Shown here: positions 23,824-56,947 of the stretch, piece by piece | Numbering within the stretch: position 1 is the first letter of the stretch | Layout: the number at the start of each line of letters is the position of its first letter | Assembly: GCA_016721435.1 (NCBI GenBank) | Contig: JADKIC010000002.1 | Coordinates: 193,212-257,211 of the forward strand | Origin: Bacteroidota bacterium | Lineage (GTDB): Bacteria > Bacteroidota > Bacteroidia > AKYH767-A > OLB10 | Length of the DNA stretch: 64,000 bases | Direction: 5' to 3' | Program-made: the position numbers and the translations under genes | The notes under the pieces: model-generated | The model's database searches: none | Seen by the model: only the letters and a program-made list of their open reading frames with translations | What the model was told of the DNA's origin: nothing

Positions 23824-23966
23824 GGCTGAATGGTTTAAAATAGATTGCCGTACATTCAATAGCAGGCTCCGTAAAGTTAGTAATTTATTTCTTTGAAAAC
23901 GATGAGCCAATAGTAAACGGGGACCAATGACCGGAAATCGCCTTCTAGTATGCTGAAAAATGTACT

Positions 23967-25250: not shown

Positions 25251-25260
25251 TTGCTCGAAA

Positions 25261-26139: not shown

Positions 26140-26151
26140 CAGGCAATAAAT

Positions 26152-28061: not shown

Positions 28062-28064
28062 GTG

Positions 28065-31036: not shown

Positions 31037-33130
31037 ATGAAAAAACTATTACTGTTCCTGGCCTTTGTCATCATGGCGAAGTCAGGTTTTACGCAAAATG
31101 GACTGGAAGGAATAATTGTAGAGAAATACTACATTTCCAATGCGGCTGACGCAGCAGGAAGTGTTGGTGTGTTGCCAAGTGGTTCTACCACTTATCGTAT
31201 TTATGTAGATATGTTACCGGGATATACGTTTCAGGCTGCTTATGGCGTAGCAGGTCATGAATTGCGTTTTCAAACTACTACTTCATTTTTTAACAATGAA
31301 GATTTCGGATCAACCGTTCCAACATACAGTAAGAACAATTCGCTTTTTAACACCGTAATGCTCGATTCATGGTTACCAGGTGGAGCAGCTCACGCATTAA
31401 ATCATGGTATTCTAAAATCAGAAGACAATGTTGCGGCAGGCGGTGCTACTGTTATCAATGCGAATGGAATTCTTGCCAATGCGGATCCCAACGCAGGTAT
31501 TCCTCTTACCACACAGGATGGTCTTTATACCGGAACTCCTGCAAGTGTTACCGTACTCGGTTTCACACCGGCACAGTTAAGCGTGTTTGATAATGTAAGT
31601 AATGCCGGTAACTTAATTTCTACCACTAATGCCTCTTGGGCAGTTTTAGGTGGTGCTTCAGGTCCTACTGCTGCGAATAAAGTACTGATCGCTCAATTCA
31701 CAACTAATGGTACTTTCTCCTTTAAGCTGAATGTGCAATTGGGTACTCCAACCCCGGGCGTTTCTCAGAATTTCGTTGCTGAAAATCCGGTGGGAAGTGA
31801 GATTCTTTTCCCGGGACTTATCTATCCTGCTCCTTCCAATCCAACTGCACTTGTTTCAATAGCAAGTAACACTGCTTTCCCTACATGTGCCGGAACAAGT
31901 GTAACGTTTACCGCTACACCAACTAATGGCGGAGCAACACCAACCTATCAATGGAAAAAGAATAATGCTAATGTTGGAACGAATAGTCCTACTTACACTT
32001 TAACCGGACTGAAAAATAACGATCAGATTAAATGTATCATGACATCAAGTATTGCCGGTGCTCTTAATAATCCTGCTACTTCCAATACTATTACATCGTT
32101 GATAAATCCGGTTCCGGATGTATCAATTACAGCTGCTGGTCCAACTACTTTTTGTAACCAAGCAAATCTATGTACATTAACTGCACAGAATGCAAGCGGA
32201 TTGACTTTGCAATGGACTAAAAACAACAATAATATCTCCGGTGCCACCGGTGCCACATATGTGCCTACAACTAGTGGTACTTATAAGGTGAAAGCGACTA
32301 CAATCAACGGTTGTACTGATTTATCTTCAGGTCAAGCTATTGTTGTAAATGCATTGCCTATAGCTACGAAAACAGTAACCGGTCCTACAACTTTCTGTTC
32401 CGGAACCAATGCCTGTACGATCACGGCTAATGCCGGTGCAGGTTTAACCTACCAATGGACAAAAGGCGCTGCCTTAACACCCATTTCCGGCGCCACAGGA
32501 ATTAGTTTTCAACCTACCACTTCAAATAACTACTATAAAGTTATTGTAACCAACGGCAATGGATGTACTAAAGCATCTCCTGCAACAGCCATTACCGTTA
32601 ATACAACGCCTCCTGCAACGATTACTGCTCAGGGTCCACTCACTTTTTGTGCCGGTGACAGTGTGACATTAGTCGCTAACAGTGGTGCAGGTTTGACGTA
32701 TCAATGGTTACGTGGTGTAAACAATATTGCCGGTGCTACAACCGGTTCTTACAAAGCAAAAATTGCCGGAACATATAAAGTGCAGGTAACAAGTTCTGCT
32801 GGTTGTTCGAAATTGTCTACAGGTAAAAAAGTAGTCATCAATTGTCGCGAAGGTGTTGAATCAGAGGAAAATTATACCCTGAGTGTTTATCCAAATCCTT
32901 CAACCGGTGCATTTACTTTGAATTATCTATCAGAGGACATCATTGATGCCAATGCCACTATTGCCATTGTAGATATGATGGGACGTGTAGTGTATTCAGA
33001 AGCAGTCGAAGTAATAGAAGGACAAATCTTCAAGCAAGTGAATATGGAAAGCCAATTTGCCGGTGGAGTTTACTTTGTAAGACTTCAGGTAGGTGAGAAT
33101 AGCCTGGTATCTAAGTTGATTATTGAATAA
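31037..33130 (+). CDS. T9SS-secreted surface protein, paralogue 1: shared N-terminal domain, five Ig-like (Cys-pair, YQW-motif) repeats and a Por_Secre_tail C-terminal domain
   Basis: Signal peptide. GLEGIIVEKYYIS...GSTTYRIYVDMLPGY...HELRFQTTTSFFN...MLDSWL...NKVLIAQFTTNGTFSFKLNVQL. Repeats C.GTSVTFTA...TYQW.KN..N..GAT. C-terminal domain VYPNPSTGAFTLNY...GVYFVRLQ...KLIIE. Confidence 0.8.
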   Translation: MKKLLLFLAFVIMAKSGFTQNGLEGIIVEKYYISNAADAAGSVGVLPSGSTTYRIYVDMLPGYTFQAAYGVAGHELRFQTTTSFFNNEDFGSTVPTYSKNNSLFNTVMLDSWLPGGAAHALNHGILKSEDNVAAGGATVINANGILANADPNAGIPLTTQDGLYTGTPASVTVLGFTPAQLSVFDNVSNAGNLISTTNASWAVLGGASGPTAANKVLIAQFTTNGTFSFKLNVQLGTPTPGVSQNFVAENPVGSEILFPGLIYPAPSNPTALVSIASNTAFPTCAGTSVTFTATPTNGGATPTYQWKKNNANVGTNSPTYTLTGLKNNDQIKCIMTSSIAGALNNPATSNTITSLINPVPDVSITAAGPTTFCNQANLCTLTAQNASGLTLQWTKNNNNISGATGATYVPTTSGTYKVKATTINGCTDLSSGQAIVVNALPIATKTVTGPTTFCSGTNACTITANAGAGLTYQWTKGAALTPISGATGISFQPTTSNNYYKVIVTNGNGCTKASPATAITVNTTPPATITAQGPLTFCAGDSVTLVANSGAGLTYQWLRGVNNIAGATTGSYKAKIAGTYKVQVTSSAGCSKLSTGKKVVINCREGVESEENYTLSVYPNPSTGAFTLNYLSEDIIDANATIAIVDMMGRVVYSEAVEVIEGQIFKQVNMESQFAGGVYFVRLQVGENSLVSKLIIE

Positions 33131-33167
33131 TTGTAAGTGTAGAATGGTATAGGTAAAGCAACTTGCA

Positions 33168-34286
33168 TTGCCTAAAAAATTTAAATTGATGTTAAAGCAA
33201 TATATATTAATAGCCGGTCTGATCATGACCGGCTATTTTTCTCTCAACGCACAAAGTGGCCTGGAGAAAATTATTGTAGAAAAGTATTATATCTCTACAG
33301 CTAAAGATACAGTAGGAGCAGATTCAACAGGTTATTTACCAATAGGCTCTGTTACCTATCGGATTTTTACAGATTTACAACATGTATACAGGCTTCAGGC
33401 GGTATATGGAGTTCCGGAACATGAATTGAGAATTGAAACGACTACACGCTTTTTTAATTCTGCTATTGGTGATGGAAGGTCGGCCAATGATATTCAACCA
33501 TTGCTGTTAGTTAATGGCGCCCTTCTATTGGATAGTTGGGTTTCGGTTGGCGCAGCAACCGTTGATTATCTTGGAGTATTAAAAGCCGATGATGATTCGG
33601 TAAAAAGTTATGCAGCGAAAAATATTCAGGGTATTTTAAAAAACAGCGATCCTGAAGCAGGCATACCTTTATCAGAGAAGGATGGTATGAAATATTTACG
33701 TTATCAGCCGGCTACACAATATTATAATCTGGAGCATGATCTCAGGATTTTTGAATACCAGTACAAAGATTCAATGAAGGGTTTGTTTTCAACACGTGAT
33801 GGAGCCTGGGCAAGTTATGGTGGTTCTGTTGGTCCGCAACCGGAGAATCGTATACTTATTGCTCAACTTACTACTGATGGTGTATTGAGTTTTGAATTAA
33901 ATATGCAGTTGGCCGTTCCGAATGGTGGAGTTGAAAAGTTCGTTGCCAGGAATCCCGGAGAGGGAGAAGTTGAAATTTCTGAATTGAGGTATTCCAGCTC
34001 ACCTGACAATAAGGCTCCTGTCGTAACTTTGATAGGGCCGGATACGAAGAAGTTGACAAGCTCACAAACTATAGCCTTTACGGCCAATGCCAATGATCCT
34101 GATGGTAAAATTGTGGGGGTTGATTTTTACATCAATGATAAATTAGTGGCCACTGATACGGAATCGCCTTTTGTTTTTGACCATAAGTATGACGGAAAAG
34201 GTGCTAAAGTTTCAGCCACTGCAATAGATGCTTTGGGTGCAAAAACCAGATCAGAAGACATCTTTCTACCGGCGATGAAAATGTAA
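33168..34286 (+). CDS. Secreted protein, paralogue 2: shared N-terminal domain plus one C-terminal Ig-like domain. No T9SS C-terminal domain.
   Basis: GLEKIIVEKYYIS...GSVTYRIF...PEHELRIETTTRFFN...LLDSWVSVGAA...NRILIAQLTTDGVLSFELNMQL. C-terminal APVVTLIGPD...IVGVDFYINDKLV. Confidence 0.7.
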   Translation: MPKKFKLMLKQYILIAGLIMTGYFSLNAQSGLEKIIVEKYYISTAKDTVGADSTGYLPIGSVTYRIFTDLQHVYRLQAVYGVPEHELRIETTTRFFNSAIGDGRSANDIQPLLLVNGALLLDSWVSVGAATVDYLGVLKADDDSVKSYAAKNIQGILKNSDPEAGIPLSEKDGMKYLRYQPATQYYNLEHDLRIFEYQYKDSMKGLFSTRDGAWASYGGSVGPQPENRILIAQLTTDGVLSFELNMQLAVPNGGVEKFVARNPGEGEVEISELRYSSSPDNKAPVVTLIGPDTKKLTSSQTIAFTANANDPDGKIVGVDFYINDKLVATDTESPFVFDHKYDGKGAKVSATAIDALGAKTRSEDIFLPAMKM

Positions 34287-34497
34287 TAGGATTGAAAATT
34301 AGCTTTTCTGCAATGTTAGGAAAATGTTAATTCAGCCTTCAGGTCTTTTCAATAACGAATTGTTAATCCAAACATAACGTATATACAACCTCATTCCCAT
34401 CTCATTTATTCAATTTTGCCCTTCATGATTTTATATCATCAGAAGGAGTCTGTGATGAATATTATCTAATGTATCGTCTTAACTTAAAAATAGAAGT

Positions 34498-35586
34498 AAT
34501 GAGAAATTTAGTTTTAGTATTCGGCTTGCTTATTTGCAGTTGGAATCTGAATGCCCCAAAATGGTCTTGAAAATATTATTGTTGAAAATATTATATTTCA
34601 GACGGCAATGATACAATTGCAAATCTGGACGGTGGAGTTTTGCCGGTGGGTTCCGTTACCTATCGCGAGTATGTAGATATGTTGCCCGGTTATAAATTTC
34701 AGGTATGTTATGGTGTACCTACACATGAATTAAGAATTGAAACCACTACATTATTCTTTAATAATGAAGATCGCGGATCTACTTCTCCTAACTTCTCTTT
34801 TACAAACGCAGCCAAAAACACAGTGATGCTGGATTCCTGGTTGTCAGTAGGTGCTGCTTGTAACGGTTATATGGGAATTCTGAAAACGGATGATGATGGT
34901 GTTGGCAATATTGTTAATAATTATACGCCTCAGGTATTACAAAACGCAGATCCTGCTGCCGGTATTCCATTAACACAGCAGGATGGCTTAATCGCCGGTA
35001 CGCCGGAGGCATTTACTGAATTAGGAATTACAAATGAATTAGCCGTTTTTGATAATCAGAATGATGGAACAAATGGTCCTGTGTTTTCAACATTCAATGG
35101 ATCCTGGGTGGCGTTAAATGGTACTTATGGTCCTGATACAATCGAAAACAAAGTGCTGATTGCTCAAATTACTACAGATGGTACATTTTGTTTTCAAATG
35201 AATATTCAGTTGCGAACGCCTACTCCGGGCATTGTTGAGAATTATGTAGCGCTTAATCCAACAGGTACGGAGATTCTTTTTCCGGGATTGAACTATTGTT
35301 CTACTACCGGTAGTCCTGAATTTAAGTGGAAGAGCCTGCATTTAGCGTCTATCCCAATCCTTCATTTGATTTATTCAGCATGTGGATTTTTGCTTCCAGA
35401 CAAGTCGGTCATTATAGTTACAGAATTTGTTCTTTAGATGGAAAGCAGATGTTCAGTAAAGATTTGGGAATACAACAATTGGACTTAATGGAGAAAATTG
35501 ATTTATCCTCTTTTGCTCCCGGGGTTTATTTGATAGAACTTTCATTGAATGGTCAAAAGACTACTCGTCGGGTAGTAAAAAATTAA
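34498..35586 (+). CDS. T9SS-secreted protein, paralogue 3: shared N-terminal domain plus T9SS C-terminal domain. Three apparent homopolymer frameshifts (about 34552, 34590, 35330).
   Basis: MRNLVLVFGLLICSWNLNA then, after correction, QNGLENIIVEKYYIS...GSVTYREYVDMLPGYKFQ...HELRIETTTLFFNNEDRGST...MLDSWLSVGAA...NKVLIAQITTDGTFCFQMNIQL. C-terminal domain VYPNPSFDLF...GVYLIELSLNGQKTTRRVVKN. Confidence 0.65.
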
Positions 35587-35690
35587 TTGAAAGAAATATA
35601 AAATAGATCATATCGATTGTTAATTTATAAAGGACGACAGCTTATCCAAATAGTCCTTTCATCGAACGCTCCTCTCTATTCACTTAGATT

Positions 35691-38600
35691 ATGCAGAAAT
35701 TTATAGTGCTTGTGGTATTGCTATTATCCCTTGGTGAATCCTTTGGTCAGGGTATTGTTCGTGGAAAAGTGACAGATAAGAATGGTGAATCGCTTATTGG
35801 AGTGACGCTGGTTGTAAAGGGCAATACAGCTATAGGTGCAGCTACTGATCTGGATGGTAATTATAGTATTTCAGTGAAGGACAATGCGCCCTTCGTTTTA
35901 GTGGTATCCTATATTGGATTTAATACGCTTGAAGAATCCATTACACTTACCAACAATGCAGTAGTCATCAAGAATTTCACGATGCAATCATCATCTGTTG
36001 AGGTGAAGGAAGTGGAGATATCTGCTAAAGCAGTAAAAGCGGCCGATTATTATATGGAGAATATGAAGAAGCAATCCTCGACGACCATCGACTATGTTTC
36101 TTCTGAAACGATTCGGAAAACCGGTGATAATAGTGTGACTTCTGCCATTTCACGAGTGACCGGTGTTTCAAATACTTCAGCGGGTTTTATAACGGTAAGG
36201 GGTATAGGTGACCGTTATTTGAAGACATCAGTGAATGGTTCGGTGATTCCAACTTTGGATCCTTTTACAAATAATATTAAACTGGATTTTATTCCGGCGA
36301 ACCTGGTAGATAATATCATCATTACAAAAACAGCTTCCCCTGATTTACCCGGAAGTTGGGCAGGGGCCTATGTTTCTATCGAAACAAAGGACTATCCTGA
36401 ACAACTAACCGTCGCTGCAGAAACACAACTTGGCTACAATACGCAAAGTACCTTTCAAAATGTGTTGAGTGGGGAGAGAAGTAATACAGACTGGCTGGGT
36501 TTTGATGATGGTTTTCGGGATCGGACACATGGTGGATTTATTGATTATGTGGCAAGACCTACACAGTTTCAGGAAATGGTTGCACTTGGGTTGGGTAATT
36601 TTTATTTGGGTTTAGGAATTACTCAAAGTTGGGATCCTACCTCACAAGCCGGTATAGATCTGTTTAAATTGGGTCTGTAGAATTGGGCCTCTTAGCACCC
36701 GCATTGATTAATGATCAGGCAGCATTTAATCAGGCTTTGAGTACTTATCAAACAGGGATTAGCGCTGGATGCATTCAGTACAATTAATACACCTGCTTCA
36801 GAGCAGAATAAGAAATTCTCAAACACCTGGCTTATCGGTAAACGAAAGCACCGTTGAATTTTAGTCAGTCTTTTGGAATTGCGAATCAAATTAAGACCGG
36901 AAAGGAAAGTGCACTAGGATTTTTATTTGGATTGAGATATGGAAGCAATGTTCAATATGACAGTGATGCAAAATTGAACCGCTTTAGGTTAGAAGGAAAT
37001 ACTTTTTATTCTACACAGGAATTTACAAAGGAAACCAATAACTGGAGTGCCTTGATGAAACTTTCTTATAAGATTAATCCGAACCACAGTGTAGGTGTTT
37101 TATTTATGCCAAATGTGGGGGGCTCAAATAATCTAAGAACGATAGTCGGTACAGGTATTTTTGAAGATCAACCGGATGCTATTTATTATTCAAATGATCA
37201 GTTCTATGAAGAACGGCAACAATTGATTTATCAGGTAATGTCTGATCATTATCTGCCCTTTGCCAAGGCAAGAATTCATATGGATGCCTCTTATACCGAT
37301 GGTAGCAGTGATATTCCGGATTTTAGAAGTTTGAGTACCTTCTTGTTGAATGGTCAGTTGCTGAGTGGTCTTGGAAATTTGCCGAATACACGTGATTATC
37401 GTTATCTGGGTGAGAATTTGTTTGATTCCCGTTTGTCAATTGAAATTCCTCTGGCGGAAAAACCGGGTAAAAGCCGAAAGATAAAAGTGGGTGGTGCCTA
37501 CACTTATCTCGATCGTGAATTTAATCAGTTCGAATATATTTTAGGGGGAACGGATAGTAGTGGAAATATACTCACAGGTTCCTATCTGATACCGGATAAT
37601 AATATAGAAGCGTTTTTGAATCCTTCTAATTTCGGGGTGCAGTCATATGATTTTCAAGGATTGCCTAAGCGAAGATCCAATACAATTTATATTGAAAATG
37701 ATATTCCCGGGAACAGGACCATTGGCTATAGTGAAGTGATCGCTTATTATGCAATGATTGATTATAGTCTTTCTTATAAATGGCGCGCTTCCGGAGGCCT
37801 ACGTGTAGAACATGCCGACATCTTTGCGGATATTTATGAATACGATAGATTGGGATATGCGCCGGCGATATTCAGGAAAAGCGGAGGGAGATAATTTTCT
37901 GGCGAATCCCGGTATCATTAAAGTCACAAAATTACTTCCCAGTCTGAACATCGTTTATAAGTATCGTGATGATGAATCAAAGTCTATAAATGTTCGGGCA
38001 AACTATAGCCGTACAACAGCCTACCCAAGTATTCGTGAGATTACCGAGAATAATATTCTTGATTTTGAATTACGATCTACTGTCTTTGGTAATTCAACAT
38101 TGAAACCTGCTGATGTAGATAATTTCGACTTGCGTTGGGAAGGATACTTTAAAAATGCCAGTAGCATATCCGTAAGTGCTTTTTATAAGAAGTTTAAAAA
38201 CCATATTGAATTGTTGAATTTTAATGATGCGAACACCTGGACGAACGTAGATGACTCTTACGTGGTAGGATTGGAAGTAGAAGGGGTAAAGAAGCTTACA
38301 AAAAATTTGGAAATCCGGGCCAATGTTGCAGTTATAGAGTCAGAAACAAATGTGATTCTGAAAAGCCGAAAGGATGTAGATGGAGTCATCGTGCTCACTC
38401 CTTATGATACACTAGTCCGTTCTATGTATGGTCAAGCTCCCTTCATTGTAAATGCTATTATCAATTATAATTTTGAAAAAAGCAGAGTGAATGTCGCCGT
38501 TTCTTATAATATTCAAGGGAAGCGACTGGTGATTGCTGCCACTGAGAATGTGCCCGATGTTTATGAAATGCCAAGAAATGTTATTGATTTTAAAATATCA

Positions 38601-38759
38601 AAGCAGTTGGGAAAACACTTTACTACTTCACTTACTGTTAGAGATATATTAAATCAGCCCGTACAACGCAGGTTTGAAACGGAAACAGATGAGAAATTGG
38701 ATTACGATAGCTATCGCTGGGGAACAAGCATCAATTTAGGTTTAACGTATAAACTGTAA
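35691..38759 (+). CDS. TonB-dependent-receptor-like outer-membrane protein (N-terminal carboxypeptidase-regulatory-like domain, plug, 22-strand-barrel-like C-terminus). Two apparent frameshifts (about 36680-36854 and 37812-37894).
   Basis: IVRGKVTDKNGESLIGVTLVVKGNTAIGAATDLDGNYSI (CarbopepD_reg-like). ITVRGIGDRYLKTSVNGSVIP plug motifs. Three consecutive same-strand ORFs. C-terminus GLTYKL. Confidence 0.6.
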
Positions 38760-38772
38760 AATAAAAACGAAA

Positions 38773-40140
38773 ATGAATAGAAAGAAGCAGAGTGTTGACT
38801 CACTAGTGATAACACTGGTTTTTCTGTTTGTGAGCACCTTTTCGGCAATTGCGCAGATAAAGGGACTTTCAGTGGAAACATATTATATCTCAGATGTAAA
38901 TGATATCACAGATAATACAGGTGGCAGGAGCTTATCATTGGGATCGAAAACATATAGAATTTATGTAGAGTTAGAGGCCGGAAGTAAAGTTCGTAAGATT
39001 TATGGTGATTCATTGCATCCATTATCAATTATGAGTGACTCCGTTTTTTACAATAACAATGATCGTCCATCCAATGAATTTGGATATGAAATACAAGCAT
39101 CCTGGTACGAAGATAATCCTACACTCGCATTGGATAGCTGGTTGACTTTGGGACTTGCTTCTAAAACGCATAAAGGAATTTTGAAGTCTAAGGATAATGA
39201 TGGTGATATTGTTGCAGGTAGCAATAATTTGGGTGGTACAGCTGCTATCCCCGGTGGACTTTTGGTGAATAATGATCCTCTGATGGGATTGCCACTCACC
39301 ACTGCCGATGGACTCGTGCCGAACACCATCGTAAAGGGTACCTGGATAGATGTTGGCTTTAAGGATGGATTTGGAAATGATACCACCATCTTTGGTGCCG
39401 ACAGTATTGGAAATGAATTCAAGTGTTATGGTTGTGCATTGCAGCAAACGTTGGGTGTGGAAGGCCCGAATCAGGATAGCTCAAGAGTTTTAGTAGCTCA
39501 ATTGACAACCACCGGCGAATTGAAATTTGAGTTGAATTTAACTCTTGAACAAACCGATATCAATGGAAATACGGTGCTGGTAGATTATGTAGCCACTGAC
39601 GATACCCTTCGTCCCGGTGAAGTTGTGAGTCCTTTTCTTTCGTATCCTCTGGCATGTGGATGTAATGATCCCATGTATTTGGAGTATAGTGGTTCTTACA
39701 CTTGTCTGGAAGAAGATTCTTGTAAAACGCTGATCGTTTTTGGATGTATGGATACAATGGCCTGTAACTATAATCCGAACGCTAATTTTAATATTAGTAG
39801 CCTTTGTTGCTACCCGGGTTACTGCAATGATCTTGATATTTCGTTAGTATGTCCAACATTAAATCTGGGCCGATTCGCTTCGTCTAACGTTTTGGTCTAT
39901 CCGAATCCAAGCATTGGACCACTTACCGTTGAATTGTATGCGGATAAAAAGCAGCAAGCAACCCTTGAAGTGTATAATGCCATGGGTGAATTAGTTTATG
40001 CAGATCGTATTGCTTTAAGTGATAAAGTGACCCTCTCCGATCATGACATTACCTTTTTGCAAGAAGGTGTGTATCTGGTAAGAGTAACCGGAGATCAATT
40101 GAATGAAAGTATTCGTATTGTAAAGAGAAATAATAATTAA
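38773..40140 (+). CDS. T9SS-secreted protein, paralogue 4: divergent copy of the shared N-terminal domain, Cys-rich middle region and T9SS C-terminal domain
   Basis: GLSVETYYIS...GSKTYRIYVELEAG...LALDSWLTLGLA...GILKSKDNDGD...VNNDPLMGLPLTTADGL...RVLVAQLTTTGELKFELNLTL. C-terminal domain VYPNPSIGPLTVEL...GVYLVRVTG. Confidence 0.7.
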   Translation: MNRKKQSVDSLVITLVFLFVSTFSAIAQIKGLSVETYYISDVNDITDNTGGRSLSLGSKTYRIYVELEAGSKVRKIYGDSLHPLSIMSDSVFYNNNDRPSNEFGYEIQASWYEDNPTLALDSWLTLGLASKTHKGILKSKDNDGDIVAGSNNLGGTAAIPGGLLVNNDPLMGLPLTTADGLVPNTIVKGTWIDVGFKDGFGNDTTIFGADSIGNEFKCYGCALQQTLGVEGPNQDSSRVLVAQLTTTGELKFELNLTLEQTDINGNTVLVDYVATDDTLRPGEVVSPFLSYPLACGCNDPMYLEYSGSYTCLEEDSCKTLIVFGCMDTMACNYNPNANFNISSLCCYPGYCNDLDISLVCPTLNLGRFASSNVLVYPNPSIGPLTVELYADKKQQATLEVYNAMGELVYADRIALSDKVTLSDHDITFLQEGVYLVRVTGDQLNESIRIVKRNNN

Positions 40141-40151
40141 TAGCAGCTATC

Positions 40152-40910
40152 ATGAATAATTCAATTCAATTCTTTCGAAACAATTCATCATTGCGATTTC
40201 TGTTGTTTTTCCTGCTCTACTTTGTTTTAGGATTAAGTGCTTGTAAGGACGATGACGAAACGACGCCAATGCTGGAGACAGGAACCATGATTGATGTAGA
40301 TGGGAATATTTACAAAACAGTGTTGATTGGTGGTAAGTGGTGGATGGCCGAGAATTTGAGAGTAAAACATTATCGTGACGGTCAGGCTGTGAATGAATTA
40401 GTAGAAGATACCACCTGGAGTCAGGGTGCTGCGGCTTATTCTGTTCATCCGGATGCGACCACAGCGATGGGATATCTTTACAATTGGGAAGCCGTTTCCA
40501 ATACAGCCGGTCTGGCTCCTGACGGATGGCATATTGCTACCGATGAGGAATGGAAGCAATTGGAAAGTGCAGTGGGTATGGAATCATCAGAAATTGTAAA
40601 GACAGGATGGAGAGGTTCCATTGAAGGCGATGCTTTAAAAGCAGAAGGAACGGATAACTGGAACAGATTTGATCCCGTATGGGCAACGAACAGCAGTGGC
40701 TTTACTGCATTATCTGGATCGTGTCGTCTATACAATGGGAAATTTGGATATCCCGGCCGCTTATATACCGGATTTTGGTGGACCGCCTCAGAAAATATAG
40801 CTGATAATTCAAAAGCCTGGTACCGCTATCTGGATTATAAGACATCAGAAGTATTCAGACAGTATCTTCAGAAAGAATATGGAATGAGTGTGCGTTGCGT
40901 CAAAGATTAG
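40152..40910 (+). CDS. FISUMP-domain lipoprotein (Fibrobacter succinogenes major paralogous domain, TIGR02145-like)
   Basis: Lipobox LGLSACKDD. GGKWWMAENLR, GYLYNW, GWHIATDEEW, GFWWTASE, SVRCVKD are the hallmark FISUMP motifs. Confidence 0.75.
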   Translation: MNNSIQFFRNNSSLRFLLFFLLYFVLGLSACKDDDETTPMLETGTMIDVDGNIYKTVLIGGKWWMAENLRVKHYRDGQAVNELVEDTTWSQGAAAYSVHPDATTAMGYLYNWEAVSNTAGLAPDGWHIATDEEWKQLESAVGMESSEIVKTGWRGSIEGDALKAEGTDNWNRFDPVWATNSSGFTALSGSCRLYNGKFGYPGRLYTGFWWTASENIADNSKAWYRYLDYKTSEVFRQYLQKEYGMSVRCVKD

Positions 40911-41340
40911 TTCATTTGTTTTTGCAAACTTTACCTATGGAGAGGGTAATGCTGGTTAATGCAGTGGATGAAAGGAGTAAGAGATGTTTTAGTGTGATGT
41001 TTTATTGCTGCCCATTTCAATAACAGATACGTTAAAGAAATTTCTTGGTGAACATTAGTACTAATTTTCCTAAGTAAAACATGATTACAGAGTATATTTC
41101 GAAGATTTGCGTTTGAAATTGCCAATAAATCGCTATATTTTTTCAATGATTTCCGGACTTTTTTAGTTAATTCAATATGTCTTTAATGTTACCTGATTTT
41201 TGGTTTAACATACAGGTGAAATACAAATAATGATTTAGTAAGTTACCGGATATTTCCAGGTTCAATTACCACTCTACATTTGACCCGAGTTAAAGAGTGC
41301 ATGCATCATTTAAAATCAAATAATAAACCAAATTAAAAAA

Positions 41341-42951
41341 ATGAAAAAACTAATTGCAAAATTTGCTGTTGCTGCCGGGATGGTAGTTGCAGCCGGTACT
41401 ACGGGTTCTGCTCAAAACAACTTAGGTGCTGATTGCGGATGTCCACAAGTTTCCAGCCGTCCAACTAAGAACTTCAGTGCTTATGTTGATGTAAACGGAA
41501 ACCTGCTTGCGAATCTCTATCTGTATTGCGACACCACCTACATCCTTAACGACAAAGTTTGGGTAGGTGCCGGTAAGACGATCACTATCGCTCCCGGAAC
41601 TGTTATTAAAGGAACACCAACCGGTATCGGTGTTCAACAAAATTCTCTTGTTATCATGCGCGGTGGTAAAATCAATGCTGCAGGTACTACTACCTGTCCG
41701 ATTGTATTTACTTCAACAAATGATCCTGTAAATGGTACTTATCCAATCGGCAATCGTGCAGAGTGGGGTGGAATTCAGGTATTGGGTAACGCGCAATTGG
41801 CTCGTTTAGGTGGTGTAGCTATTGCCGGTGGTGGAACAACTGCTAACGGTGAGTGGTTAATGGAAGGTTTGAATGCTGATGCCCGTTCAATATTTGGCGG
41901 AGGATCAAATCCAAACAACAATGACGACTCTGGTGTACTTCGTTATGTATCTATTCGTCATGCAGGTGGTGCAACCGCAGCAAACGTAGAGTTGAACGGT
42001 TTATCACTTGGTGCTGTAGGTAGCGGAACTATTATTGAAAACATCGAAGTCCTTTCAAACGACGATGATGCTGTTGAGTGGTGGGGTGGTACTGTAAACT
42101 GTAAGTATCTTAACTTCATGTTCCTGAATGATGACGGTTATGATATTGACATGGATTATGATGGAAAATTACAATTCCTGTTTGGTGTGAAAGCTCCTGC
42201 TGCTGTTGCTCCGGGTGGTGAAAGTGGTTTCGAGTGGGATGGTGATGAAGGTGCTTCTACCTGGTTTGGTGGTTACACTTCTGCTGTTTCTACTATGAAG
42301 TCTCATCCAGTTGTTTACAATGCAACTATCCTTGGTAATGGTTCTAATACCGGTGCGGGTGGTACTGGTACTACTCCTGGAAATCCATTCGGCATTAGCT
42401 TCAAATCAGATGCTGAAGGTGAAATCTACAATTCTATCTTCACCGGTTTCCGTGGTGGTATGAATTTACAAAGTACTTCAGATTCTTCTTACACAAACTG
42501 GGTGAACAACTTAGTAAAAGTTCAATGTAACCATTGGGTAGGATGTACTTTCCCTGCTTCTAACCAAAACGTTCCTTTCGTTGCAGGTGGTGCTGACTCC
42601 ACTAAATTCTTTGGTGATAACAACGTAAACACGAACAGCATTGCAGGTTTTGATTATTTGTTCAACATCAACGGATCAACTAACGTTGTTTCTGACAACA
42701 TCGATGTAGTTCCAAACAGCAATCTTTCAACAACTTGTTCAGCTCCTAATGATGGTTTCTTCACACCTGCTAACTATCGCGGTGCATTTGAAGCAGGTAA
42801 AAAGCCTTGGTTAAACAAGTGGGCTTACACTTCTGTAATCAATGTTATTCCGGGCTTATCTCCATGTCCTACTGACCTGAATTCAGATGGTCAAACCAAC
42901 ACTTCTGACTTCTTGTTGTTCGTTGCTCAATTCAACCTTTCTTGTAACTAA
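41341..42951 (+). CDS. Secreted Gly/Asn-rich protein (beta-helix-like repeats) ending in a single dockerin-like Ca-binding segment
   Basis: Signal peptide. C-terminal DLNSDGQTNTSDFLLFVAQF matches the dockerin loop pattern D.N.DG...N..D...L. A TACATTTG -7 box lies at about 41272-41279. Confidence 0.55.
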   Translation: MKKLIAKFAVAAGMVVAAGTTGSAQNNLGADCGCPQVSSRPTKNFSAYVDVNGNLLANLYLYCDTTYILNDKVWVGAGKTITIAPGTVIKGTPTGIGVQQNSLVIMRGGKINAAGTTTCPIVFTSTNDPVNGTYPIGNRAEWGGIQVLGNAQLARLGGVAIAGGGTTANGEWLMEGLNADARSIFGGGSNPNNNDDSGVLRYVSIRHAGGATAANVELNGLSLGAVGSGTIIENIEVLSNDDDAVEWWGGTVNCKYLNFMFLNDDGYDIDMDYDGKLQFLFGVKAPAAVAPGGESGFEWDGDEGASTWFGGYTSAVSTMKSHPVVYNATILGNGSNTGAGGTGTTPGNPFGISFKSDAEGEIYNSIFTGFRGGMNLQSTSDSSYTNWVNNLVKVQCNHWVGCTFPASNQNVPFVAGGADSTKFFGDNNVNTNSIAGFDYLFNINGSTNVVSDNIDVVPNSNLSTTCSAPNDGFFTPANYRGAFEAGKKPWLNKWAYTSVINVIPGLSPCPTDLNSDGQTNTSDFLLFVAQFNLSCN

Positions 42952-42987
42952 AATTAAAGAAAAAAAACAGCTCACAGCTACAAAATT

Positions 42988-45900
42988 ATGAAACTAAATA
43001 AACTATTAACAGGAGCACTCCTCTTGTTAACGGGAACCTTTGCGCATGCCCAGAACGGTCTGGAGAACATAATCATAGAGAAGTACTACGTATCAAAGGC
43101 TGCTGATGCTGCTAACGCCAACACTGCATTGTCAGGAGCCGGTTATACAACAGGTACATTACCTTCGGGTTCTGTTACCTGGCGTGTGTACGCTGATCTG
43201 CTCCCGGGTTGGGGAGTTCAGTCAGTGTATGGTGTACCAAGTCATCCATTGGTGCTGACTTCTTCAACATCATTCTTTAATCATCCGAATGCGAATACTA
43301 CAGGTGGAAACTTCTCCAGCAACAGTAACAGTATCCTCGGCGACGGAACTACACTTCTAGACTCTTATCTGTCTTGCGGTGCTGTAGCTCCTGCACGTTT
43401 CGGTGTATTGAAAGCCGAAGATAATTCTGCTGCAGTTCCTGCAGGTGGTGGTATTAACCAGGTGATTACTCCCGGTACAGTATTGGCCAACAACGATCCA
43501 AGTGCAGCTCCTGCGCTTACCGTTGCTGATGGTCACTATAACGTTGGTGGATCTCCGGCATTACTTGCTCTTACTCTATTAGGTGATGCAGCTGCTGCTC
43601 CGGTAAATATTTTTACCGATGGTTCAACAGTTGGTAATAACTACAATAGTACAAATACTTCATGGGGAGTATTGGGTGAGCAGGTAGGAGCTTTCCCTAC
43701 AGGTACTAACCGTGTATTGATTGGACAATTTACTTCTGATGGTGTATTCCATTATGAGTTGAATATCCAAATCCGTAACAACACTACCTTTGCTGTGCAA
43801 AACTATGTGAATGCTAACCCAACCGGTGCCGAGATTTTATTAACCGCTCTTGCCGGTACATTGAATCAGCCAAATGCTGCTCCAAGTGTTAACATTACAG
43901 CTCCTGCAAATGGTGCCAGTTTCTTTGTGGGTGATAACGTGAACATCACTGCTACTGCTTCTGACGTTGCTCCAGGTACTGTTACGCAGGTGGAATTCTT
44001 CGTAAACGGAGTTTCTGTAGGTGTGGACAATACAGATCCTTATGCAGCTACCTATGTGGCTACTTCAGGAACGAAGAACATCACTGCTGTAGCTACTGAT
44101 AACGGAGGTGCTACTACTACTTCTTCTATCGTTACCATTACTGTGGGTACAAACACTGCACCTTTAGTAAATATCACGGCTCCTGCTAATGGAACATTGT
44201 TCATTGGTGGAGCTGCTGTTCAGATTGATGCGAATGCATCTGATCCGGGTGGTGCTGTGGCTCAGGTGGAATTCTTTGTAAACGGAGTTTCTGTAGGTGT
44301 AGATAATACATCGCCTTACTCTGTTTCCTGGACAAGTGGTGCTCCTTTCGGAACACGTTTATTGACTGCTGTGGCTACAGATAACTTCGGTTCATCAACT
44401 ACTTCTGCTACAGTTTCTATCACTGTTCAAAATCCTTCAGCTCTTCCTTACACTATCGGAAATCTTACAGAAAAATGTGTAAACAGCAATTTCTGTCTTC
44501 CTATCACTGCTGTTGATACCGTTGCGGATATCATCGGTTATGATATCGTTCTCGACTATGATGTAACTAAAGTTGCTCCAACAGGAGCAATTGTACGTAG
44601 CAATGATTTACTGCTTCCTTCTTTCAACTACAACATGGTGAGCACTGCTTACTCTAATGATGCTACAAATGGTAAATTGCGTATCGCAGTTTATTTCAAC
44701 GGTAGCGCTCCTTCATCTGCTCGTTTTGCCGGATCAGGAGATATCATTTGTGTTGAATTTGCTAAGACAGGTCTTGGTAACACAGATACAGCTTTATTCG
44801 TAGCAGATACTTTAATGGAAAGCCGCATTACCGGAGTTCAATTGAAGGCTACTGATGCTGGAAGCTATGCAACGTATAAAGACAGTCTCTTCAGCAGCAA
44901 TTTGAAATTCTGGGAAGATTTCAGTCCTATCCGTTACAATGCAGCTGCACCTGCTGATTATTTGATCACTAATATTTATGGAAACAATACCAGCTGTAAC
45001 AACCGTTCAGTTGCTGCTGTTCAACCAGATCTAAATGGTGAGTTTACATACAATGTGAACAATGGTGCTAAGATTGAAATCATCAAGGATATCGCTCCGG
45101 CAACGGATATGCAACCTGTAGTGAATGGATTTGACGCCTTCCTTACACGTCGTGTGTTGATCAATGATGCAAGTTTCGTTCCTTCTGTTTATCAGATGAT
45201 CGCTATGGATGTGAATACAGATGGTGTTGTTTCTGCAGGTGACTTGTCACAGATTAACCAACGTGCTGTATTATTCATTCCTGAATTCCAACAGGATTGG
45301 AACTACAATGCTCAGGGTGTATCTAATGGTCAGCCTTCAAGAGACTGGTTGTTCATTGATGTAAATACTGTAAGTGCTAGCCCTTCTTATTACATATCTA
45401 CTAACTATCCTTCTAATGATGGAATTGGTTATAGCAAGAATAAAGTTCCACAAGTTGATTTCTGTAGCCCAATCCCTGTTAGTTTTATTAATGGTGATTG
45501 TCCTGTAATCGGAACTGAATCTTATATCGGTGTATTGTTAGGTGATGCTAACGGAAATTACTCTTCTAACAATGGTGCTCCAAGTCCATTTAAAGTGGGA
45601 AGCTCTGAGAAAGTAATTTTTGATGCTACAAAAGCAGTAGTTGCTGATGGTTTCGTTACGATTCCTGTTGCTGTTAAATCATTCAATACTGTAAATGCAA
45701 TCGATTTCGCTTTCCAGTTCAATGCAGGCAACCTTACTTTCGATAACGTGACAGACCTTACCGGTAAAATGATGGTTCTTTCTCATTTCAATACTGCGGA
45801 TCAAACTGTTCGTTTCACTTCGAATAGCTTGGAAAGCATTGAAAAGAATGTAACTGTTTTAAATGTGCGTTTCGCTATCAATAGCACTAATTTCAACCCT

Positions 45901-46218
45901 GCTGACTTGAATTCACTTTCAGGTTATATCAACGGTGAAAGCGCTGAAGTTGAAGTAAGAACGGAGCGTATCGCTGCAACGGATGTGAACGTAAGTGTTT
46001 ATCCAAATCCGGTAAACAATATGTTGAATGTGTTTGTATCTGAGAATGCTCAAATCGAACTTTCTGATTTAAGTGGCCGTGTGATCATGACTGTAAACAA
46101 TGTACTTGCTGATCAAAAGCAGGAACTTAATGTTGCGGGTATTGCAGACGGTGTTTATATGCTGAAAGTTTGGAACGGTGAGTTTGTTTCAACAAGCAAA
46201 GTGGTAGTAAAGCATTAA
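42988..46218 (+). CDS. Large (1076 aa) T9SS-secreted scaffold-like protein, paralogue 5: shared N-terminal domain, two Big-like Ig domains, two cohesin-like domains, a dockerin-like segment and a T9SS C-terminal domain
   Basis: GLENIIIEKYYVS...GSVTWRVYADLLPGW...VLIGQFTSDGVFHYELNIQI. Ig repeats APSVNITAPANG...VEFFVNGVSVGVDNT (x2). Cohesin-like CLPITAVDTVADIIGYDIVLDYDVTKV...NGKLRIAVYFNGS...GDIICVEFAKTG, and a second copy at KVIFDATKAVVADGFVTIPVAVKSFNTVNAIDFAFQFNAGNLTFDNV. DVNTDGVVSAGDLSQINQ dockerin-like loop. C-terminal domain VYPNPVNNMLNVFV...GVYMLKVWNGEFVSTSKVVVKH. Confidence 0.75.
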   Translation: MKLNKLLTGALLLLTGTFAHAQNGLENIIIEKYYVSKAADAANANTALSGAGYTTGTLPSGSVTWRVYADLLPGWGVQSVYGVPSHPLVLTSSTSFFNHPNANTTGGNFSSNSNSILGDGTTLLDSYLSCGAVAPARFGVLKAEDNSAAVPAGGGINQVITPGTVLANNDPSAAPALTVADGHYNVGGSPALLALTLLGDAAAAPVNIFTDGSTVGNNYNSTNTSWGVLGEQVGAFPTGTNRVLIGQFTSDGVFHYELNIQIRNNTTFAVQNYVNANPTGAEILLTALAGTLNQPNAAPSVNITAPANGASFFVGDNVNITATASDVAPGTVTQVEFFVNGVSVGVDNTDPYAATYVATSGTKNITAVATDNGGATTTSSIVTITVGTNTAPLVNITAPANGTLFIGGAAVQIDANASDPGGAVAQVEFFVNGVSVGVDNTSPYSVSWTSGAPFGTRLLTAVATDNFGSSTTSATVSITVQNPSALPYTIGNLTEKCVNSNFCLPITAVDTVADIIGYDIVLDYDVTKVAPTGAIVRSNDLLLPSFNYNMVSTAYSNDATNGKLRIAVYFNGSAPSSARFAGSGDIICVEFAKTGLGNTDTALFVADTLMESRITGVQLKATDAGSYATYKDSLFSSNLKFWEDFSPIRYNAAAPADYLITNIYGNNTSCNNRSVAAVQPDLNGEFTYNVNNGAKIEIIKDIAPATDMQPVVNGFDAFLTRRVLINDASFVPSVYQMIAMDVNTDGVVSAGDLSQINQRAVLFIPEFQQDWNYNAQGVSNGQPSRDWLFIDVNTVSASPSYYISTNYPSNDGIGYSKNKVPQVDFCSPIPVSFINGDCPVIGTESYIGVLLGDANGNYSSNNGAPSPFKVGSSEKVIFDATKAVVADGFVTIPVAVKSFNTVNAIDFAFQFNAGNLTFDNVTDLTGKMMVLSHFNTADQTVRFTSNSLESIEKNVTVLNVRFAINSTNFNPADLNSLSGYINGESAEVEVRTERIAATDVNVSVYPNPVNNMLNVFVSENAQIELSDLSGRVIMTVNNVLADQKQELNVAGIADGVYMLKVWNGEFVSTSKVVVKH

Positions 46219-46242
46219 TATTTGATTAGTATTATTTTGAAA

Positions 46243-46275
46243 GGGCTCCGGGGTTATTCGGAGCCCTTTTTTATT
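46243..46275 (+). terminator. Rho-independent terminator after the 1076-aa gene
   Basis: GGGCTCCGgggttattCGGAGCCC followed by TTTTTTATTTT, read directly. Confidence 0.7.
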
Positions 46276-46400
46276 TTCTAGAACTTTCTGGATTTATATT
46301 TTAACCATTTTTCGTATTGTTAATATTAGTTTAACATGACTATTTGATCAGAGCCTTACATTTGTTTCACACAATTGCCGCAATTGAAGATTTTACAAAA

Positions 46401-47009
46401 ATGATGAAGTGCCTGTTTACTTTTTTCGCAATTTGCTTACTGTCGGCCGGAGATGGATGGGCTAATGAAAAACTTACTTTTTCCAACCAAAGGGAAACAG
46501 TTTACGATGAGCTTTTCATGGAGGAAACGACGCGTGTAGGTTTGAATGTTGGTGGAGATTCAACGGATATAATATTATCGGGTGGTTTCGCAAATTTTGC
46601 CTATATAATTACGGAAGGTTCACTTTTTATTTGCCCCGGAGATACCATTACCCTCAGCGCCGGAGGAGGAACGGCCGGATCTACTTATCTATGGACAACA
46701 GGCGCAACAACATCTTCTATTCAGGTTTCAGCTACCGGAGTCTATGGCTTGAAAATTACGACCTGTAAAGGAAAAGGGAAGGGTGGAAAATGTACATCTG
46801 TTGCTGTGCCGGTTGCAATAACCGTCAGTAGCCTCATTTCCGATTTGAATAATGATGGTAATGTGGATGTTTTGGATTACATCATCTTCCTCGGAGTGTT
46901 TAATAGCCCTTGCCCTGCATGTGCGGAAGACTTTATTGCAGATGGATTAATAGATACCAGGGATTATTTGCGATGGGTATCGGATATTTTTAAGACTTGT
47001 AATAATTGA
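46401..47009 (+). CDS. Small secreted protein with Ig-like middle region and a C-terminal double dockerin-like module
   Basis: Signal peptide MMKCLFTFFAICLLSAG. C-terminus DLNNDGNVDVLDYIIFLGVF - 9-aa linker - DFIADGLIDTRDYLRWVSDIF gives two Ca-binding loop plus helix segments in the dockerin arrangement. Confidence 0.6.
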   Translation: MMKCLFTFFAICLLSAGDGWANEKLTFSNQRETVYDELFMEETTRVGLNVGGDSTDIILSGGFANFAYIITEGSLFICPGDTITLSAGGGTAGSTYLWTTGATTSSIQVSATGVYGLKITTCKGKGKGGKCTSVAVPVAITVSSLISDLNNDGNVDVLDYIIFLGVFNSPCPACAEDFIADGLIDTRDYLRWVSDIFKTCNN

Positions 47010-47140
47010 TTTTTGCAGAAAATTTAATTTTCAGAGGTTAATGACTTATCCTTAACAATTTTCTCATTTAGAAGTAATTTCAGCATAATATTATTGCCAG
47101 ACTGAAGCTATATATTTGCTAACTAATCCCCTCCCCAATC

Positions 47141-47890
47141 ATGTCTAAAATTATACTATCAAATCTATTCTTGTTTTTTGCTGCAATGATTCATTGTCAA
47201 GCGAAACAAAGCAACATATTCCCCACTCCTGATGTAGTTACCATCGATGCCGGTGATTCAGTCATTTTTGATATGTTTAACGCCACATATTCCGGATCAC
47301 AGGTTACTATTCCGGTATATATCAATTCAGATGACCCTATCTATGCGGTTGACTTTTCCTTTAAGTTTAATAACCTGGATATGGTGTATGATACGATTAC
47401 TTTATCCCCGGCTGGATCTACATTGCTCGCCGTTTCCTATTTGAATCCTAATGATTCCGTGGTACGTTTTACCTCCAGTTCGCTGGTGAGTATTGCTAAT
47501 CAAACGGTATTGGTATATATTCATTTTAATTTGGCATCCGGCCAAACATTAGATGCAGCAGATATGTTTACTTTGAAAGGATATTTAAATGGCGATCCTT
47601 GTAGTGAGGCCATAATTCCTCCGTCTACGGTTGGATTAAGTGATTTTGCATCAAATTGGAATTTGTCCATCTTCCCAAATCCCGCTACCGATTTCCTTTT
47701 TGTGGAAATGAATCAGAATGCCGTTCTTGAAGTGATGGATGTACAGGGTAAGGATGTGTTGCTAAAACAATCTTTAAATGCAGGAATCAAAAATCAGGTG
47801 AACATTGAGTTTCTTCCTATCGGTTTCTATCTGTTACGCATTTATAACGAAGAAGGTGTCAGCGTAAAGAAGGTGTTTGTTGCGAAGTAA
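47141..47890 (+). CDS. Cohesin-like domain protein with T9SS C-terminal sorting domain
   Basis: VVTIDAGDSVIFDMFNATYSGSQVTIPVYINSDDPIYAVDFSFKFNNLDMVYDTITL resembles the second cohesin-like domain of the 1076-aa protein. C-terminal domain IFPNPATDFLFVEM...GFYLLRIYNEEGVSVKKVFVAK. Confidence 0.65.
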   Translation: MSKIILSNLFLFFAAMIHCQAKQSNIFPTPDVVTIDAGDSVIFDMFNATYSGSQVTIPVYINSDDPIYAVDFSFKFNNLDMVYDTITLSPAGSTLLAVSYLNPNDSVVRFTSSSLVSIANQTVLVYIHFNLASGQTLDAADMFTLKGYLNGDPCSEAIIPPSTVGLSDFASNWNLSIFPNPATDFLFVEMNQNAVLEVMDVQGKDVLLKQSLNAGIKNQVNIEFLPIGFYLLRIYNEEGVSVKKVFVAK

Positions 47891-53037: not shown

Positions 53038-53230
53038 GTACCCTTCACCCATTCGTACCCTTCGTACCCTTCACCCATTCGTACCCCTCGTACCCTTCAC
53101 ACATTCGTACCCTTCGTAAATTCGTACCCTTCGTACATTCGTACATTCGCCTATTTCGCGAATTCGTCCATATGTAATTCGTATATTCGTATTCTCGCCC
53201 GGCGGGCGAGATCTATTCGTAAATTCGTAA
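53038..53230. repeat. Degenerate tandem array of TTCGTAC / CCCTTCGTA units (about 20 copies). Includes the 19-bp perfect palindrome TCTCGCCCGGCGGGCGAGA at 53194-53212.
   Basis: gtacccttcacccattcgtacccttcgtacccttcacccattcgtacccctcgtaccc...attcgtaaattcgtaacc read directly. Reverse-complement relation to 5607-5655. Confidence 0.8.
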
Positions 53231-53241
53231 CCGCTGCTCTT

Positions 53242-54060: not shown

Positions 54061-54102
54061 AACAATAGTTGTTTTGAAGCAAAAGCCTCGAATAGTCAGG
54101 TA

Positions 54103-55377: not shown

Positions 55378-55434
55378 GTTCTGTTTTTCTGTCTAAATTC
55401 GTGTATACTATTATTTTCTTTAATTGGCTAACTG

Positions 55435-56335: not shown

Positions 56336-56338
56336 TTT

Positions 56339-56937: not shown

Positions 56938-56947
56938 GATATTTTAT

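Follow-up and report, generated by a model that had tools for sequence, protein, structure and literature searches.

An unnamed beta-sandwich domain marks predicted T9SS cargo proteins clustered with a TonB-dependent receptor in environmental Bacteroidota

Five secreted proteins encoded in the window (the whole 64,000-nucleotide stretch of DNA analysed here) begin with the same N-terminal region, hereafter the head, which raises the question of what this region is and why its genes lie together. Bacteroidota have a major part in breaking down organic matter in lakes, soils and wastewater, and their outer-membrane nutrient uptake is understood almost wholly from the SusCD systems of gut species. 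An earlier note on this DNA had taken the five proteins for an expanding adhesin or surface-enzyme family unique to this lineage. It had left out that the head genes are interleaved with genes for a TonB-dependent receptor, a FISUMP lipoprotein and a beta-helix protein (Table 1).

Alignment with MAFFT placed the five N-terminal regions collinearly, with 34-59% identity to g1 and 38 invariant columns that include the motif series reported before. All five genes were matched by a head HMM with E-values between 1e-72 and 1e-113, which puts the shared head far beyond chance. It always starts directly after the signal-peptide cleavage site. Searches of Pfam and NCBIfam (both at E <= 1), of the PDB with phmmer and of the PDB with profiles returned nothing for the head, and no known CBM profile or fold matched it. 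Its structure was predicted with a pLDDT of 95.4 and a pTM of 0.93, and structural comparison of the predicted model found no solved fold matching its full length. Taken together, these data show that the head (~240 aa) is an autonomous and previously unnamed domain of beta-sandwich fold whose conserved insert is ~80 residues long (residues about 62-143), in agreement with the claim that it lies outside known families. An SGNH-like 'GDS' reading of its LDSW motif was rejected because the fold is wrong.

The residues conserved in the head were analysed in a 142-sequence alignment (A4) of head-family proteins taken from protein-database searches, with identity to g1 as low as 32%. Nine residues are invariant in this alignment, among them N67, D91, K108, D111, Q201, T203 and N213, and E10, H55, R35 and S92 are near-invariant. 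This suggests that the 9 invariant residues could form a common site; that the invariant Lys, Asn, Thr and Gln might make intramolecular isopeptide or ester cross-links is a further idea suggested by the alignment. The very high conservation of invariant and near-invariant residues at such divergence also speaks for the head being a new enzyme, for example a polymer-cleaving one, that acts at the surface and whose products the receptor imports, as does the lack of any other clear enzyme in the locus except a possible beta-helix. We nonetheless consider this improbable: no catalytic family resembles the head by sequence or fold, and the presence of 4-5 paralogues per locus and of tandem head repeats within one protein is typical of binding modules. 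Moreover, no catalytic domain was ever found beside the head in the long family members, where the only partner domains were Ig-like, so the surface-enzyme proposal gained no support. The mature N-terminus of the head lacks a histidine, which excludes an LPMO-type histidine brace, and its identification as an LPMO or another histidine-brace copper protein was thus rejected.

We next examined the window coordinates and reading frames against related loci. The genes g1, g2, g4 and g5 are intact ORFs on the + strand at the coordinates reported before, whereas the remaining gene, reported as 34498-35586, proved to be split over frames. Compared with its intact orthologue (378 aa) in locus L004, g3 carries 1-bp indels at about 34493, 34554, 34584 and 35324. 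In the receptor gene, too, 1-bp indels interrupt the frame in the window and leave three ORFs; L004 has an unbroken copy of 1,023 aa. Pseudogenisation specific to g3 and the receptor was rejected because cysD, cysC and a sulfate transporter gene are frameshifted too. The range covered by the earlier note also contains, at 46344-47890, two more genes, both lacking the head.

Table 1. Features of the head-gene cluster in the window.
Feature	Coordinates	Strand	Description
g1	31037..33130	+	Signal peptide, head (about 31094-31825), Ig_7/PKD-like repeats, T9SS type-A tail
g2	33168..34286	+	Signal peptide, head (about 33252-33992), Big_7, no T9SS tail
g3	34469..35586	+	Head (about 34586-35296), T9SS tail (35326-35586)
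TonB-dependent receptor	35691..38759	+	CarboxypepD_reg N-terminal extension, Plug, 22-strand barrel
g4	38773..40140	+	Divergent head (about 38851-39645), Cys-rich module (39658-39897), T9SS tail
FISUMP (Fib_succ_major) lipoprotein	40152..40910	+	Lipobox LSAC, then KDDDE
Beta-helix protein	41341..42951	+	Signal peptide, no T9SS tail, C-terminal dockerin-like Ca-loop + helix
g5	42988..46218	+	Head (about 43051-43857), two Big_7, unassigned middle region, dockerin-like loop, cohesin module, T9SS tail
Terminator-like hairpin	46239..46270	+	14-bp stem + T-tract, directly after g5
Small secreted protein	46344..47009	+	Ig-like module, two-repeat dockerin-like C-terminus; no T9SS tail, no head
Cohesin protein	47141..47890	+	Cohesin PF00963 above cutoff, T9SS tail, no head

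Export signals were found in all five classes of head protein. Each class has a type-I signal peptide, recognised by eye rather than with a predictor as a hydrophobic N-terminus with a conserved A-x-A / Q(N)GLE junction after it, and that of g2 is of type I and not of the lipoprotein type. Por_Secre_tail (PF18962 / TIGR04183; Pfam cutoff, 27 bits) was detected in g1 (42.7 bits), g4 (38.7 bits), g5 (48.1 bits) and the g3 fragment at 35326-35586 (36.4 bits), and g1, g4 and g5 also passed the NCBIfam tail model. The tail is absent from g2 in both Pfam and NCBIfam. These scores confirm the reported split of four proteins with a tail and one without, and by this criterion four of the five head genes, g2 excluded, are predicted to encode T9SS type-A cargo. 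The same pattern was observed across loci, with tails in 48/49 proteins of the g3 class, 49/51 of the g4 class, 11/13 of the g1 class and 4/38 of the g2 class.

The head is widespread: one search gave 1,099 hits, the family comprises 1,408 clusters at 50% identity, and 480 matches were found in GTDB species genomes, which contradicts the view that it is unique to this lineage. The head followed by a T9SS tail (g3 type) is both the commonest and the minimal architecture; in long members the head sits at the N-terminal tip of Ig-like stalks and 46 of the 55 carry the tail. NCBI annotates the key proteins merely as 'T9SS type A sorting domain-containing protein', and the g1 product is identical to MBL0095379.1. 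We thus show that the head is the mark of a large family of putative T9SS cargo proteins in environmental Bacteroidota. What holds of the earlier interpretation is an unnamed domain carried on variable, tail-bearing surface architectures, with downstream modules that differ between paralogues as described (Ig_7/PKD in g1, Big_7 in g2 and g5, Cys-rich in g4, cohesin-like in g5); its lineage-specific, expanding and surface-enzyme parts found no support.

The genomic context was then compared between loci. The conserved order is a head protein without tail, a head protein with T9SS tail, the TonB-dependent receptor, the head protein with Cys-rich module and tail, the FISUMP lipoprotein, the beta-helix protein with its dockerin-like end, the head protein with Big_7, cohesin and tail, and finally the cohesin protein with tail. 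Among loci of at least 15 kb, the receptor was present in 36/40, the g4 Cys-rich module in 36/40, FISUMP in 37/40 and the beta-helix protein in 32/40, all on the same strand. Gene order is kept across genera, including on an Arcticibacter chromosome. The gene downstream of the receptor is always that of the g4 head protein, at a distance of 14 bp in the window and 2-15 bp across loci, and FISUMP follows g4 after 12 bp (12-44 bp across loci). For the five positional classes, the nearest head in another locus belonged to the same class in 55/55, 46/52, 31/40, 31/34 and 10/13 cases. The g4 class is a tight orthologous group of 598 hits; g3 and g2 represent the classes 'pre1' and 'pre2', and g1 the class 'pre3', which is confined to 13 related loci. 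The copies are therefore positional orthologues, the g1 type alone being of restricted distribution, and the family is not a recent expansion. These results show that the five copies in the window are differentiated paralogues at fixed positions in a ~15-17 kb same-strand cluster around a TonB-dependent receptor, and that hundreds of uncultured environmental Bacteroidota species have this cluster. We found no description of it in the literature.

The best-conserved component of the cluster is the g3-type head, with a mean identity of 0.63 compared with 0.51 for the receptor and 0.49 for FISUMP. This bears on the proposal that the heads are adhesins, which at the tips of stalks anchored through the T9SS would let cells stick to particles, to prey or to other cells, next to a functionally unrelated receptor. 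A head conserved above the transporter weakens this explanation, which we regard as unlikely. When all other ORFs were clustered across about 75 loci, no further conserved component emerged, and the locus lacks any conserved gene for an inner-membrane transporter or a regulator and any recognisable hydrolase. Neither a riboswitch nor any other Rfam family was found there, hence no clue to a substrate, and the gene tables of loci L002, L004 and L007 contain no SusD Pfam family.

The receptor contains the domains PF13715 and PF13620, PF07715 and PF00593, and scores below every curated family cutoff. Against the SusC/RagA model (TIGR04056) it reaches 61.7 bits for a cutoff of 368, with a match at residues 23-162 only, and its similarity to solved relatives is confined to the N-terminal extension. 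FISUMP and the beta-helix protein have no relatives in the PDB; the precomputed Pfam family of the beta-helix orthologues is Beta_helix_4.

Within the cluster, cohesins go together with T9SS tails, and dockerin-like ends are seen in proteins that lack the tail, for example in 43 of 52 orthologues of the beta-helix protein. In g5, the cohesin module spans aa 855-1001 and a dockerin-like loop lies at aa 741, with a dockerin score of 22.6 for a cutoff of 22.9 bits (PF00404 / NF041540). The product of 46344-47009 scored 11.8 in Pfam and 20.9 for a cutoff of 29 in NCBIfam, and the beta-helix protein had no dockerin match in either database. Despite these sub-cutoff scores, a D-x-N-x-D-G loop-plus-helix pattern is present and conserved in the dockerin-like ends. 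We also considered that the heads might serve protein-protein assembly only, as divergent cohesin-like modules binding the receptor, FISUMP or each other. We judge this very unlikely, given that no head matched a Pfam cohesin profile (E <= 1) and that profile-profile comparison (hhalign) with the locus's own cohesin family gave a probability of 1%. Cohesin- and adhesin-type folds (2vo8, 2xdh and Als9 2y7m) align with the head over less than half of the residues at 7-10% identity, show no sequence or profile similarity to it and have no counterpart to its conserved insert.

The tail-less proteins raise a further possibility, that the receptor works outward. The TonB-dependent transporter Oar of Myxococcus xanthus is needed for secretion of PopC (PMC6434023), and the receptor has the Oar architecture of CarboxypepD_reg extension, Plug and barrel (PMC6434023). 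Acting like Oar, it would export three kinds of tail-less protein, namely the g2-class head and the beta-helix and Ig proteins with dockerin-like ends; once outside, these would assemble into a surface structure by docking on T9SS-anchored proteins with cohesins or heads. Consistent with this, Sec-exported proteins without a T9SS signal have dockerin-like ends that match surface cohesins, and no inner-membrane importer is encoded in the locus. However, ordinary Bacteroidota importers (SusC, RagA) commonly have a CarboxypepD_reg extension as well, and Oar-type export is documented in a single system; we see little chance that this is how the receptor works.

With slightly less than even confidence, we propose instead that the heads capture a putative ligand for a complex that the T9SS displays on the surface and that supplies the receptor, a role like that of SusE/F-type surface binding proteins or of a CBM on a scaffoldin. 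The T9SS would bring the tail-bearing heads to the cell surface and keep them there on different mounts: a short tether in g3, Ig-like stalks in g1 and g5, and a Cys-rich knot in g4. There they would catch one conserved ligand and pass it to the receptor. The FISUMP surface lipoprotein and the beta-helix protein may bind or process the substrate, the latter docking through dockerin-like/cohesin modules on g5 and on the product of the last gene. The tail-less g2-class head, Sec-exported without lipid anchor or T9SS signal, may take the ligand in the periplasm. IhtB/IhtA (PMC12094164) set a precedent for a surface-exposed binder beside a TonB-dependent receptor. Several points argue against ligand capture. 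A locus without inner-membrane transporter, regulator, hydrolase or riboswitch is unusual for nutrient uptake; the receptor falls below curated cutoffs and is no SusC; and an enzyme would account equally well for the abundance of invariant polar residues in the head. Furthermore, the dockerin-like modules remain below Pfam and NCBIfam cutoffs and the model offers no route to the surface for the tail-less proteins that carry them.

A definition of the head would supply the name, and in time the function, of over a thousand orphan protein clusters. The g3-type protein consists of just the head and a tail; its small size, high conservation and confident model make it a practical choice for solving the structure and screening ligands, and one such protein is encoded at 5687-6823 of L004. 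The locus couples a non-SusC TonB-dependent receptor to predicted T9SS cargo, and a definition of the head could also uncover a second organising principle of surface capture and import in the phylum. It is conceivable, if doubtful, that the cluster encodes an undescribed Bacteroidota outer-membrane machine alternative to SusCD utilisomes, made of a transporter, T9SS-anchored capture heads, a cohesin/dockerin-like assembly and a periplasmic tail-less paralogue, or a variant in which an Oar-like transporter exports the tail-less components.

The SusCD polysaccharide-utilisation loci of Bacteroidota and their outer-membrane utilisomes comprise a SusC transporter, a SusD lid, and surface binding lipoproteins of SusE/F type together with enzymes. 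Like them, the cluster sets a TonB-dependent transporter with a CarboxypepD_reg-type N-terminal extension beside several accessories exposed at the surface, among them a lipoprotein, in this case FISUMP, and beta-sandwich proteins of more than one domain. It differs from them in that it has no SusD gene, glycoside hydrolase, regulator or inner-membrane transporter, its receptor fails the SusC/RagA model, and its accessories are putative T9SS cargo with C-terminal sorting domains and an unnamed domain instead of lipoproteins. A second parallel is found in Porphyromonas gingivalis, whose IhtB is a T9SS cargo protein. IhtB is a surface-exposed haem binder next to the TonB-dependent receptor IhtA, with a proposed hand-over of ligand (PMC12094164), but its CbiK-like chelatase fold bears no similarity to the head and the iht operon includes an ABC importer. 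Oar shares its domain architecture with the receptor (PMC6434023), yet it belongs to a different phylum, and PopC-like cargo is absent here. Finally, g5 resembles cellulosome scaffoldins in its distal non-catalytic head, Ig-like spacers, cohesin module and cell-surface anchor, and the beta-helix protein and the small Ig protein end, as in cellulosomes, in dockerin-like Ca-loop/helix repeats. In contrast to cellulosomes, the cell is Gram-negative, the anchor is a T9SS one in place of SLH or sortase, no protein has more than one Pfam-level cohesin, the dockerin-like modules are sub-cutoff with a single repeat in the beta-helix protein, and the whole is linked to a TonB-dependent receptor.

The five head genes, g1 to g5, share an N-terminal domain of ~240 residues (the head). 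Their N-terminal regions aligned collinearly, with 34–59% identity to g1 and 38 invariant columns that include the motif series by which the earlier note had recognized five paralogues, and a head-domain HMM matched the 5 copies with E = 1e-72 to 1e-113. As that note also described, the T9SS sorting domain Por_Secre_tail scored above curated cutoffs in g1, g4, g5, and a g3 fragment (35326–35586), and was not found in g2. Four of the genes it listed are intact ORFs (Table), but g3 is not one ORF. Compared with the intact 378-aa orthologue in L004, the locus of a near relative (88–94% nucleotide identity), g3 has single-base indels near 34493, 34554, 34584, and 35324, and the adjoining TonB-dependent receptor has 7 more. 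Three housekeeping genes (cysD, cysC, and a transporter) have intact orthologues in another comparison locus, L001, but in the window each is split over 2 reading frames. The L004 beta-helix gene (L004 12581–14187) is itself frameshifted (301 + 235 aa) and its window copy intact (536 aa), which supports that the breaks in both assemblies are technical. Because the housekeeping genes are also frameshifted and L004 is broken in a different gene, the scattered 1-bp indels of the window, including those in g3 and the receptor, are most likely assembly errors. A perfect palindrome with an 11-bp stem (33209–33237), scored as terminator-like on both strands, lies within the signal-peptide-coding part of g2 and is probably a chance match.

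Table. Genes of the receptor-centred cluster and frameshifted housekeeping genes
Feature	Position	Strand	State or place	Accession
g1	31037–33130	+	intact ORF, 697 aa	MBL0095379.1
g2	33168–34286	+	intact ORF, 372 aa	
g3	34498–35586	+	not one ORF	
TonB-dependent receptor	35691–38759		among head genes	
g4	38773–40140	+	intact ORF, 455 aa	MBL0095386.1
Fib_succ_major (FISUMP) lipoprotein	40152–40910		among head genes	
Beta-helix protein	41341–42951		among head genes	
g5	42988–46218	+	intact ORF, 1,076 aa	MBL0095389.1
Small Ig + dockerin-like protein	46344–47009		after head genes	
Cohesin + T9SS-tail protein	47141–47890		after head genes	
cysD	55438–56335	-	frameshifted vs L001	
cysC	56348–56937	-	frameshifted vs L001	
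Sulfate/CitMHS-type transporter	56951–58712	-	frameshifted vs L001	

A word-indexed search with the head returned 1,099 matches, most of them proteins of ~360 aa that consist of a head and a T9SS tail. An exhaustive profile search returned 1,408 clusters at 50% identity (596 at E <= 1e-30), with proteins of 272–2,182 aa and up to 4 tandem heads, and 480 matches were confirmed in GTDB species-representative genomes, so the family is not unique to this lineage as had been proposed. Lakes, activated sludge, and comparable environments are the sources of the best 74 loci, all of them from uncultured Bacteroidota. The head, or the leading copy where heads are arrayed in tandem, came immediately after the signal peptide in every protein examined, giving a mature terminus of the form Q(N)GLE..IVE. 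Among 55 long family members, 46 bear a T9SS tail and the only other partner domains are varying Ig-like spacers (Big_7, Ig_7, PKD, Big_2), in line with the proposed conserved head on variable display architectures. The head fails the profile test for cohesin and the membership tests for the CBM and histidine-brace families, and we found no literature description of the domain or its locus. The observation made in the earlier note stands, and its interpretation holds in part, including the novelty of the domain.

The head genes are interleaved with other components (Table), which rules out a free-standing paralogue array. The earlier note had overlooked this conserved receptor-centred locus. 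When component models were run against six-frame ORFs of all fetched loci, almost every locus of sufficient length had the canonical order: tail-less head, head + tail, receptor, head + Cys-rich + tail, FISUMP, beta-helix, head + Big_7 + cohesin + tail, cohesin + tail. The window's gene order recurs in L004, on a 2.99-Mb Arcticibacter chromosome (L007), and in L002, which comes from an unrelated MAG. In the 40 loci that span 15 kb or more, the components all lie on one strand, with the receptor in 36, the g4 Cys-rich module in 36, FISUMP in 37, the beta-helix in 32, and at least 3 heads in 34. The Cys-rich module of ~80 residues (g4 residues about 296–375, window 39658–39897), with a repeated GC.D..ACNYNP.A-like motif, matched no Pfam family; among the 74 GTDB loci, 48 have it conserved behind the g4-class head. 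Gaps are 2–15 bp between receptor and g4 and 12–44 bp between g4 and FISUMP. A strong terminator-like hairpin (46239–46270; 14-bp stem, 7 G-C pairs, T-tract) 21 bp past the g5 stop codon suggests that the transcription unit ends there, ahead of the last 2 genes. No further gene family conserved around the cluster was found. Together, our data show that T9SS cargo proteins carry the head, a new domain, and that their genes occupy fixed positions around that of a TonB-dependent receptor.

The cluster lies between sulfotransferase-rich polysaccharide-synthesis genes (about 22000–30300, - strand) and PAPS-synthesis genes (53200–58700, - strand; cysQ, cysN, cysD, cysC, transporter). In L001 these flanks are ~2.3 kb apart with only a truncated g1 orthologue between them, indicating that close relatives differ by insertion or deletion of the ~17-kb receptor cluster. 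A DUF6544/DUF6920 membrane protein (48144–49262) and a convergent GH1 beta-glucosidase (49267–50619) flank the cluster. Both are kept in L004, the closest relative, and are probably outside the system because they are not conserved across the family.

For each head we identified the most similar head from a different locus. It belonged to the same positional class for 55/55 g4, 46/52 g3, 31/40 g2, 31/34 g5, and 10/13 g1 heads, which contradicts the proposed expanding family and indicates, on sequence similarity, that the copies are positional orthologues, anciently duplicated and differentiated. The g1 class, with 13 loci, is the sole addition of restricted distribution. The T9SS tail is present in 48/49 g3-, 49/51 g4-, and 11/13 g1-class proteins and in only 4/38 of the g2 class, whose members are usually a head alone (median 259 aa) with an ordinary type-I signal peptide.

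We infer that the heads may be ligand-capture modules serving the receptor, with the tail-less g2-class head possibly a periplasmic acceptor. This model draws on the lack of any catalytic domain beside the head among the 55 long members, its place at the far end of Ig-like stalks, and 9 residues invariant across 142 family sequences (identity to g1 down to 32%). It also draws on the g3-type head, the best-conserved component of the locus (mean identity 0.63, versus 0.56 for the beta-helix, 0.51 for the receptor, and 0.49 for FISUMP). This conservation would fit a head that recognizes a single invariant ligand or partner and speaks against an adhesin that diversifies. Finally, g5 is scaffoldin-like, and the beta-helix and small Ig proteins, both secreted without T9SS tails, end in dockerin-like repeats (D-x-N-x-D-G Ca-loop + helix; 42874–42951 and 46842–47009). 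This end is kept in 43/52 beta-helix orthologues, another such D-x-N-x-D-G repeat lies inside g5 (about 45208–45270), and cohesin modules are confined to proteins with a tail. In FISUMP, K/D/E-rich residues usually come after a lipobox, which, read against Bacteroidota lipoprotein export signals, would fit surface exposure. The capture model is weakened because no inner-membrane transporter, regulator, or riboswitch was found conserved in the locus, and because the receptor, which is not SusC, stayed below every curated family cutoff (best TIGR01782, 172 bits versus 310). Since capture leaves unexplained how the tail-less dockerin-like proteins would reach the surface, a receptor that exports outward, by analogy with Oar (PMC6434023), would be a legitimate rival.

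Functionally, the nearest analogues of the locus are SusCD utilisomes and IhtA/IhtB-type pairs of binder and receptor. The locus fails the defining tests of a SusCD PUL, with neither a SusC signature nor SusD. The architecture of g5 (targeting module, spacers, cohesin, anchor) recalls cellulosomal scaffoldins. We rate the locus as a putative TonB-receptor-centred acquisition system that uses T9SS cargo with an unnamed domain.
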